This document shows, one piece after another, positions 22,819 to 22,958 of a stretch of DNA of 64,000 bases. The position numbers and the translations under genes are program-made. Under the pieces are notes generated by a model. That model was not told the DNA's origin and did no database searches. It saw nothing but the letters and a program-made list of their open reading frames with translations. This DNA comes from Escherichia phage A6-6. The stretch lies in the sequence record PQ510734.1. One strand, written 5' to 3'. The first letter of the stretch is position 1. Every line of letters starts with the position of its first letter.

Positions 22819-22958
22819 TATGGGAACAACCTGGACCTCATGATTTTGTGAGGGATTCCCGCCAACCTGTAATAAGGTCGAGCCCAAGCGCGGTAATGGG
22901 TAAATACAGAAATGGACAATTCATGCGCCATGGAATGGCCCAAATTTAGAGAGAAGAA

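Follow-up and report, generated by a model that had tools for sequence, protein, structure and literature searches.

A conserved structured RNA motif upstream of vs.8 in T-even phages as a candidate RNA family of Enterobacteriaceae phages

Introduction

The mRNA leaders of phage T4 contain protein-binding elements that are structured or sequence-specific, among them the gene 32 pseudoknot and the RegA and RegB sites. The tRNA region of T4 also yields stable small RNAs, species 1 and 2 (rnaC/rnaD), the function of which is not known. GOLLD, ROOL and other orphan RNA motifs of phages were defined by comparative genomics and covariation and often lie near tRNAs; GOLLD and ROOL are large and ornate. 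The put RNAs of phage HK022 are only about 70 nt long and require no protein factor; they are located 3' of promoters, co-directionally with long operons, address a conserved host machine without dedicated phage proteins, and fold as two stems into a V shape with a triplex (PMC9378689). A catalogue of structured-RNA motifs gives their number as 10,006 (PMC10690425).

The element described here lies in a 64,000-nt stretch from Escherichia phage A6-6 (PQ510734.1), a T-even (Tequatrovirus) genome segment that is called the window throughout. Like the T4 translational operators it is an RNA element in a T4-type mRNA leader, and it would likewise act by binding; however, those operators are specific for their own gene and phage group, whereas its core is common to unrelated phage families and, in contrast to RegB targets, carries no GGAG site. 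With species 1 and 2 it has in common that, outside the T4-like phages, a non-tRNA phage RNA accompanies tRNA clusters, but in the T-evens it is located about 6.3 kb from the tRNA cluster, inside an mRNA. It resembles GOLLD and ROOL as a phage-borne, covarying motif often found near tRNAs, but its core, at about 45 nt, is much smaller. The put RNAs are matched in shortness, in orientation relative to the downstream genes and in the position 3' of promoters in some genomes; the motif, however, is a three-way junction, and its contexts include tRNA arrays and the interior of mRNAs.

Results

The locus in the window

The gene order around the element is as follows.

20936-21391, + strand: nudE (ORF map and profile matches)
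21428-21922, + strand: lysozyme gene e (ORF map and profile matches)
22011-22328, + strand: first internal-protein gene (phrog_3966)
22345-22818, + strand: internal virion protein gene, 157 aa (DUF7412, phrog_3155; ipIV in T2), which stops 1 nt 5' of the element
22819-22958, + strand: the whole non-coding element, 140 nt, with a 5' hairpin domain, a core three-way junction and a 3' leader domain
22947-22949, + strand: in-frame TAG closing the short upstream frame 22848-22949; relatives have the TAG or have lost the frame
22959-23498, + strand: gene for a vs.8-like P-loop protein, 179 aa (phrog_1488)
between the vs.8-like gene and vs.6, + strand: vs.7-like gene (ORF map)
23832-24194, + strand: GrcA-like vs.6 (ORF map and profile matches)

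A previous reading of the window from the sequence alone had pointed to a 140-bp non-coding spacer that is richer in GC than its surroundings. Both properties hold: the bounds of the gap are exact, with the internal-protein-like ORF ending at 22818 and the vs.8-like ORF starting at 22959, and at a GC content of 0.464 (0.351 for the whole window) it ranks at the 98th percentile of 140-nt segments, with 0.51 for the 55-nt core. Three strings that the reading had singled out are found in the gap, ACCTGGACC at 22829, CCCGCCAACC at 22858 and GAGCCCAAGCGCGG at 22880. Neither a promoter (sigma70-type hexamers) nor a terminator (GC hairpin plus T-run) was detected inside 22819-22958, and no terminator-like site was found across 21300-23600. 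The assignment of the downstream gene to the P-loop NTPases was likewise correct, as its product has the Walker A motif GGRQSGKS and matches phrog_1488 at 1.7e-79, together with weak Pfam matches to AAA_14 and Terminase_6N. Nearly every T4-like phage compared has this vs.8-like gene as the 3' neighbour of the element.

The two internal-protein genes of the window encode a common N-terminal leader, MKTY(K/Q)EFI(A/T)E, and are otherwise unrelated. T2 has only the second of them at this locus, and the content of the internal-protein cassette varies among phages that are otherwise 96-97% identical. The tRNA cluster of the window (15464-16484) contains 11 genes (Gln, Leu, Gly, Pro, Ser, Thr, Met, Tyr, Asn, His and Arg), more than the eight of T4.

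Coding status and the vs.8 gene model

In the RefSeq annotation of T4, the 140 bp form the first 40 codons of vs.8 (219 aa), which is given a start 27 nt past denV. The long T4 ORF depends on a TAT in place of the TAG of the window and on a 9-nt duplication (CTTATAGAG); in other Tequatroviruses, the TAG at the position equivalent to 22947-22949 is kept or the frame is lost. In Klebsiella phage K65 the frame contains a 7-nt indel and a stop after 20 codons, two further loci (L023, L047) have frameshifts in the stretch, and relatives overall differ by stops, by indels of 1, 7 and 8 nt, and by unrelated 5' domains. The phrog_1488 profile, with its 177 positions, spans residues 3-179 of the short vs.8 ORF and leaves none for an extension, and over these 179 residues the proteins of T4 and of the window are 98% identical. 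Substitutions within the element are compensatory in helices and not codon-periodic. Judged from these comparisons, the T4 RefSeq model of vs.8 appears to begin about 40 codons too far upstream, the start that the profile and the relatives support being the equivalent of window position 22959; the extra part lies on the minus strand of the T4 locus (L001 4787-4942).

The sequence-only reading had also offered a short minus-strand ORF as an explanation. That frame (22794-22943), like every other, is broken in diverged relatives by indels that are not multiples of three, and the G-U pairs described below can form on the + strand only, so that the proposal had to be abandoned.

RNA structure

Comparative analysis gave the following model, with all features on the + strand.

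22822-22860: 5' domain, consisting of P1, the internal loop AACCUGGA and P2 (RNAalifold, 14 Tequatrovirus-type copies)
22822-22826 with 22856-22860: P1, GGGAA paired to UUCCC; compensatory GGGAG/CUCCC in L025
22836-22841 with 22848-22853: P2 hairpin, CCUCAU paired to GUGAGG; compensatory CCUUAU/AUAAGG in L048
22861-22901: core three-way junction (covariance model R1 and pair counts)
22861-22864 with 22897 and 22899-22901: P3, GCCA paired to U plus GGU, with G22898 bulged (covariation)
22865-22868 with 22875-22878: P3a, an invariant 4-bp hairpin, ACCU paired to AGGU with hexaloop GUAAUA
22879-22896: conserved strand CGAGCCCAAGCGCGGUAA, which holds P3b and the junction strands
G22882-C22891 and C22883-G22890: P3b, within CGAGCCCAAGCGCGGUAA
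22879-22881 and 22892-22896: junction strands CGA and GGUAA, near-invariant (C-R-A and GGUAA)
22902-22946: 3' leader domain, T4-like phages only and kept in all of their genera, AUGGAC...CAUGYGCC-A-HGGAA-YGGCCC
22927-22939: hairpin of the 3' domain, GCCA-UGGAA-UGGC with GGA in the loop

R1 finds one copy in the window (22854-22908, 71.5 bits, E 3e-21), the next best hit scoring 11.7 bits. The T4 counterpart is located at about 64853-64907, minus strand, of NC_000866. Covariation was assessed on two core alignments, one of 33 variants (A2, plain MAFFT, gap-free) and one of 58 distinct variants (A4), which was aligned to the model and yet is essentially gap-free; A2 gives the same covariation result. 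P3 consists of four pairs and a bulged G, and three of the pairs covary strongly. Among the 58 variants, pair 1 is A-U in 30, U-G in 10, U-A in 9, C-G in 6 and G-C in 2; pair 2 is C-G in 38, U-A in 9, G-C in 7 and A-U and G-U in 1 each; and pair 3 is C-G in 45 and G-C in 10. The covariation score of P3 is 0.315 compared with 0.083 after shuffling (0/500 shuffles reach 0.315), and it falls to 0.074 or less when the partners are slid by 1-3 columns. A structured small RNA had been among the explanations suggested for the spacer, and this result argues strongly in its favour.

The hexaloop of P3a (G-U-R-A-N-A) is a site where substitutions accumulate. P3b is a mini-helix of 2 bp, G-C/C-G, with a variable loop of 3-6 nt, to which several variants add a third pair (GCC/GGC, GCG/CGC, GCG/UGC or GUC/GAC). 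The junction strands are so conserved that covariation carries no information about them. P1 and P2 show single compensatory changes each, and genera other than Tequatrovirus have a different 5' hairpin domain with compensatory changes of its own, for example AAAGG/CCUUU versus AAAGC/GCUUU. Mosigvirus G2469 has the 3' leader domain alone, the core being absent. The helices contain many G-U pairs, which are possible on the + strand only; these pairs and the co-directional orientation described below identify the + strand as that of the RNA.

The check by RNA folding and covariance that had been recommended thus gave a divided answer: P3 covaries, but the folding energy of the single 140-nt sequence is unremarkable relative to shuffles (z = +0.60 on the + strand, -0.71 on the - strand) and there is no Rfam match. 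The outcome that the reading had itself named as speaking against it, a spacer of average composition and no conserved structure, did not materialise, as the helices covary and the GC content stands at the 98th percentile. Two other foldings were discarded. A rival hairpin, GAGCCC/GGGU, that would close the conserved loop has no covariation and fails in type C sequences; a pairing that RNAalifold predicts over a longer distance, between the core strand and the 3' domain, also has none and is contradicted by type B. Taken together, the comparative data make it very probable that the element is a structured, non-coding RNA of the + strand.

It should be noted that T2 (NC_054931) deviates both in the motif and in the gene. 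In its motif (L036 2535-2589), a P3a position at which 57 of the 58 variants agree is changed from G to U, and its vs.8 (L036 2640-3175) contains two 2-nt deletions, spans three frames and is annotated in its 3' part only. The two changes may represent joint decay, and this single instance hints at a link between motif and vs.8.

Distribution of the core

The 140 nt match 1005 phage records. Query positions 44-123 are 75-82% conserved in other T4-like genera, the flanking genes of which are far more diverged, and the core of 40-45 nt is 91-97% identical in phages that have nothing else in common with the window. Its carriers outside the T4-like phages are the following.

Vequintavirus (Murica and others)
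Phapecoctavirus DE16 and phiWec190
N4-like Klebsiella phage Pylas (Schitoviridae)
45-47-kb and other metagenomic contigs

The core has no blastn match in 5,426 E. coli genomes and is therefore not host-derived at any similarity detectable in this way. The single match among 185,579 bacterial and archaeal genomes, in Pseudomonas marincola (L029), is a chance match that lacks the flanking motif. Chance matches were also all that the first IMG/VR pattern, a 16-mer, retrieved (L005-L014), and three GC-rich metagenome matches without the flanking motif (L037, L057, L059) were rejected likewise.

Among T4-like phages, Tequatro-, Mosig-, Dhaka-, Kanagawa-, Jiaoda- and Gelderlandvirus have the motif at a distance of 60-110 nt on the 5' side of vs.8, irrespective of the gene that precedes it. 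In Roth66, L069, L075 and copy 1 of K65 it is found 5' of an internal-protein gene and not of vs.8, and in Mosigvirus G2469, which has kept vs.8 and the 3' leader, an early promoter occupies the place of the core. Copies outside the T4-like phages are located in non-coding DNA, within tRNA clusters or on the upstream or downstream side of them; in two 45-kb contigs (L084, L085) the motif follows the endolysin gene and precedes an intrinsic terminator by about 100 nt, and in L079 and L092 it is upstream of terminase genes. In rV5-like contigs, a sigma70-type promoter (TTGACA-17-TATACT) is present about 100 nt upstream of the motif and a second promoter follows it. The strand of the motif is always that of the adjacent genes or tRNAs. 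The motif can thus stand alone, outside the vs.8 context, as far as its genomic positions tell.

Some Klebsiella and Enterobacter T4-like phages carry two copies. In K65 (L003) these precede an internal-protein gene (2013-2067) and vs.8 (2535-2589), respectively, and in three genomes of about 172-178 kb (L055, L068, L071) a diverged second copy (AAGGUCAGCCCGCGGCGGUAAGGGG) is arranged in tandem about 60 nt downstream of the first; the P3b hairpin of the AAGGUCAGCCCGCGGCGGUAAGGGG copy has a compensatory change, GCC/GGC versus GUC/GAC.

The surroundings of the non-T4 copies have features of their own. The rV5-like core is flanked on both sides by a repeated box, CCCYWAGAGGGCUUGAWAGUGC(A/U) (Murica L002 2420-2460; L021, L087, L099, L102), the GUGC(A) of which could pair with AAGUGC of the core loop. 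In DE16 (L004), the motif is part of a 185-nt segment (2371-2556) that two phages only, DE16 and phiWec190, have among about 100 phapecoctavirus records, and which for that reason is taken to move between genomes; pieces of it recur with 83-95% identity in the unrelated Klebsiella phages Pylas, KpCHEMY26, K751 and 1611E-K2-1, so that the segment is, by sequence comparison, a mosaic of apparently mobile RNA modules. In Pylas (L015), a non-coding region of about 1 kb downstream of the tRNA cluster (1828-2835) is an array of RNA modules, and the same type of array is found in L083, L022, L018, L024, L041, L049 and L056. It is bracketed by long covarying stems, CACAAC-AGGU-AAGAGCA ... UGCUCUU-WCC-GUUGUG. 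The Pylas array includes a tmRNA-like tag region at 2473-2560 (RF04321, 33.7 bits against a gathering score of 47) that would encode the tag ANDDVVLMAA, and T-arm-like hairpins at about 2170-2190 and 2437-2455, and ARAGORN reports no tmRNA in it. Such an array could represent a phage tmRNA of an unusual or a permuted kind.

denV and the fixed position of the element

The T4 gene order that the sequence-only reading had given, with denV after the internal-protein genes, agrees with NC_000866 (e, ipIII, ipII, denV, vs.8, vs.7, vs.6), and its statement that denV is missing from the window holds as well: T4 denV gave no match to the 64 kb in tblastn and blastn (best tblastn E-value 3.8), and no denV-derived sequence was found in the window. 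Its description of the spacer as lying where T4 carries denV was right about the locus, but denV does not replace the spacer in T4; the same 140 bp, with about 96% identity to the window, come after it. Because the 140 bp follow the denV stop codon immediately in T4, the spacer is not the deletion scar that had been suggested as one possibility.

The 5' neighbour of the element is denV in T4, an internal-protein gene in the window, in SH7 and in T2, which presumably has no functional v/denV gene; K65 has an early promoter there. Dhakavirus QL01, Kanagawavirus and HY01 have denV, next an internal-protein gene and then the element. The element thus stays in place across T4-like genera, whether it is separated from denV by one gene or adjoins an early promoter. 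Since the upstream content differs between relatives while the element is fixed, denV is, on the evidence of gene order, a variable cassette beside a fixed landmark, located upstream in some relatives and absent from the window.

A T4-type early promoter cassette, GTTTAC-N17-TA(G/C)TAT, adjoins different features in three phages, namely denV in T4 (L001), the RNA element in K65 (L003 2460-2490) and the 3' leader domain alone in G2469 (L034 450-490). This suggests shuffling at the denV/vs.8 locus that is mediated by the promoter cassette.

Comparison with known RNA families

A cmscan of 22300-23500 against Rfam 15 (4227 models, E up to 10) returned only chance matches of snoRNA or leader type, none of them over the core; at the gathering threshold, nothing but tRNAs was obtained from the whole window, and the rV5-like, DE16 and Pylas-type loci gave nothing over the motif. 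ARAGORN found no tRNA or tmRNA in 22000-24000 and none over the motif at 13 loci. R1 did not match E. coli ssrA or positions 25000-38000 of HK022, the early region with putL and putR (best 9.7 bits), and its best score in the rrnH operon, 7.4 bits, was on the wrong strand and elsewhere than the 530 loop of 16S rRNA. Literature searches on vs.8, on denV with small RNA, on the sequence and on T2 with denV retrieved no description. Measured against the models of Rfam 15, the motif is an orphan among structured phage RNAs and a candidate for a new family.

One likeness to a known RNA was noticed after the fact and is to be read as a lead, not as a test or proof. Helix 18 of 16S rRNA, the 530 loop, presents a closing stem, an unpaired C-N-A, a 2-bp G-C/C-G mini-helix, a GGUAA(U) strand and the closing stem in the same order as the core, with 12-13 nt identical in place (motif columns 26-45); the SSU consensus of Rfam reads stem-UGCCA-[GC]-AGCC-[GC]-GGUAAUA-stem. 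The rrnH operon contains a single match to the pattern CNAGC-N3-6-GCGGTAA, which coincides with 16S positions 518-533; 0.02 matches are expected in the operon. Helix 18, however, lacks the ACCU/AGGU hairpin that is inserted 5' in the phage motif, and instead of its AGCC the motif has a P3b loop that varies between 3 and 6 nt; no covarying partner equivalent to the 505-507/524-526 pseudoknot was found in the 58-variant alignment. The likeness gains some weight because the array neighbours of the motif in Pylas-type and 46-kb phages are translation RNAs: there, the motif is one module of an array together with tRNAs, T-arm-like modules and a tmRNA-like tag region.

Discussion

On the basis of the observed non-coding status, conservation, strand, helices and distribution, we propose that the spacer is one copy of an unannotated structured RNA family of Enterobacteriaceae phages which binds a conserved partner through its junction, a reading to which we give somewhat better than even chances. 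In the + strand RNA, P3, P3a and P3b would form a three-way junction that holds the C-R-A and GGUAA strands and the ACCU/AGGU hairpin in a fixed geometry, and this junction would be a binding surface for the partner instead of a coding sequence or a mere spacer. The partner would most likely be a component of the host translation apparatus, because outside the T4-like phages the motif is found among tRNA genes (with a tmRNA-like tag region in two phage groups), and because the layout of the junction is that of the 16S 530 loop. In the T-evens, the module would be embedded in an mRNA between the internal-protein/denV genes and vs.8 and be followed by a leader specific for T4-like phages that contains the ribosome-binding region of vs.8, so that any effect in cis would fall on vs.8. 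The core would be dispensable for vs.8 expression, as G2469 keeps vs.8 and the 3' leader without it. It is assumed here that one mechanism serves the contexts of mRNA leader, own promoter and tRNA array.

The position upstream of vs.8 in six T4-like genera also invites a cis-regulatory reading, in which the leader would be riboswitch-like or operated by a protein, the core would act as the sensor, and the core strand, when the core is not formed, would pair with the 3' domain and alter access to the vs.8 start. RNAalifold does pair the two on type-A copies, and both motif and vs.8 are damaged in T2; but the alternative pairing has no covariation and is broken in type B by the very U-to-A change that covaries in P3, G2469 has vs.8 and the 3' domain without the core, no known riboswitch model matches, and outside the T4-like phages a promoter, a terminator or tRNAs follow the motif directly, with no vs.8 homologue or ORF there. 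We therefore regard this leader function as possible but unlikely. The location just 3' of promoters in rV5-like contigs and in K65, the positions upstream of an intrinsic terminator (L084, L085), of tRNA arrays or of terminase genes, and the invariable co-directionality with the downstream genes would suit a processive antiterminator that binds RNA polymerase and lets it read through downstream terminators in cis, as a functional analogue of HK022 put. The extreme conservation would fit such a conserved host target, and the put RNAs are likewise short, at about 70 nt, and independent of protein factors (PMC9378689). Antitermination is nevertheless improbable in our estimate: R1 finds nothing in the HK022 early region, the architecture of put is a V of two stems and not a three-way junction (PMC9378689), rV5-like phages have a second promoter after the motif, and the window has neither promoter nor terminator nearby.

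A role in processing or stability is no less improbable than antitermination. An entry site or block for RNase E, III or P that sets the ends of internal-protein, vs.8 or tRNA-cluster transcripts would agree with intergenic sites within polycistronic units and tRNA arrays, and the long stems that bracket the Pylas-type modules do resemble RNase III processing stems; yet these stems are no part of the core and do not occur in T4-like phages, and processing sites rarely need 26 nucleotides that are invariant across phage families. The remaining readings are contradicted by the comparative data. That the element is a neutral relic of denV loss, or a site acting as DNA in recombination, packaging or homing, is very improbable: denV is indeed absent from the window and present at the T4 locus, the locus is a hotspot at which internal-protein genes, denV and early promoters differ among relatives, and some non-T4 copies lie upstream of terminase genes, but T4 has denV and the element together, the element is conserved in families without denV at the locus, and compensatory changes that include strand-specific G-U pairs speak for RNA and not for duplex DNA. 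A protein-coding function, be it as the N-terminal extension of T4-type vs.8, as the 33-aa ORF at 22848-22949 or as the 49-aa minus-strand ORF at 22794-22943, has scarcely any probability left. The 219-aa RefSeq vs.8 that starts 27 nt past denV speaks for it, and several frames are open owing to the richness in GC; however, the T4 fusion rests on a duplication and a TAT for TAG that are specific to T4, the PHROG profile has no room for an extension, and relatives have stops, indels of 1, 7 and 8 nt and different 5' domains, with substitutions that compensate in helices and have no codon periodicity.

Within the preferred reading, that of a structured RNA which binds a conserved partner, the likeness to helix 18 permits a more specific and distinctly speculative version, which we consider rather unlikely. 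The core could be a phage mimic of the ribosomal 530 loop, carried among the translation-apparatus RNAs of diverse enterobacterial phages as a decoy or recruiter; candidates for the factor concerned would be a toxin or defence effector that targets the ribosome, a modification enzyme of the RsmG type, S12 or an A-site factor. If this were true, an rRNA mimic would have gone unnoticed in T4 itself, within a gene that is wrongly annotated.

Apart from its function, the element alters the picture of a well-studied locus. The T4 genome is among the best annotated, and yet the stretch is filed there as the start of a hypothetical protein, and in hundreds of relatives as nothing at all ("none"), although it is one of the most conserved sequences common to T4-like phages and to unrelated myo- and podoviruses of the same hosts. 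The gene model of vs.8 can be corrected, the presence or absence of denV appears as cassette variation beside a fixed landmark and not as a local deletion, and the covariance model together with the 58 variants defines a new candidate RNA family. Conservation of this kind, in a folded RNA whose junction is invariant, usually marks contact with conserved machinery of the host. Should the partner prove to be ribosomal or to be a defence effector, the motif would represent a new class of phage-host interaction that is open to the genetics of T4.
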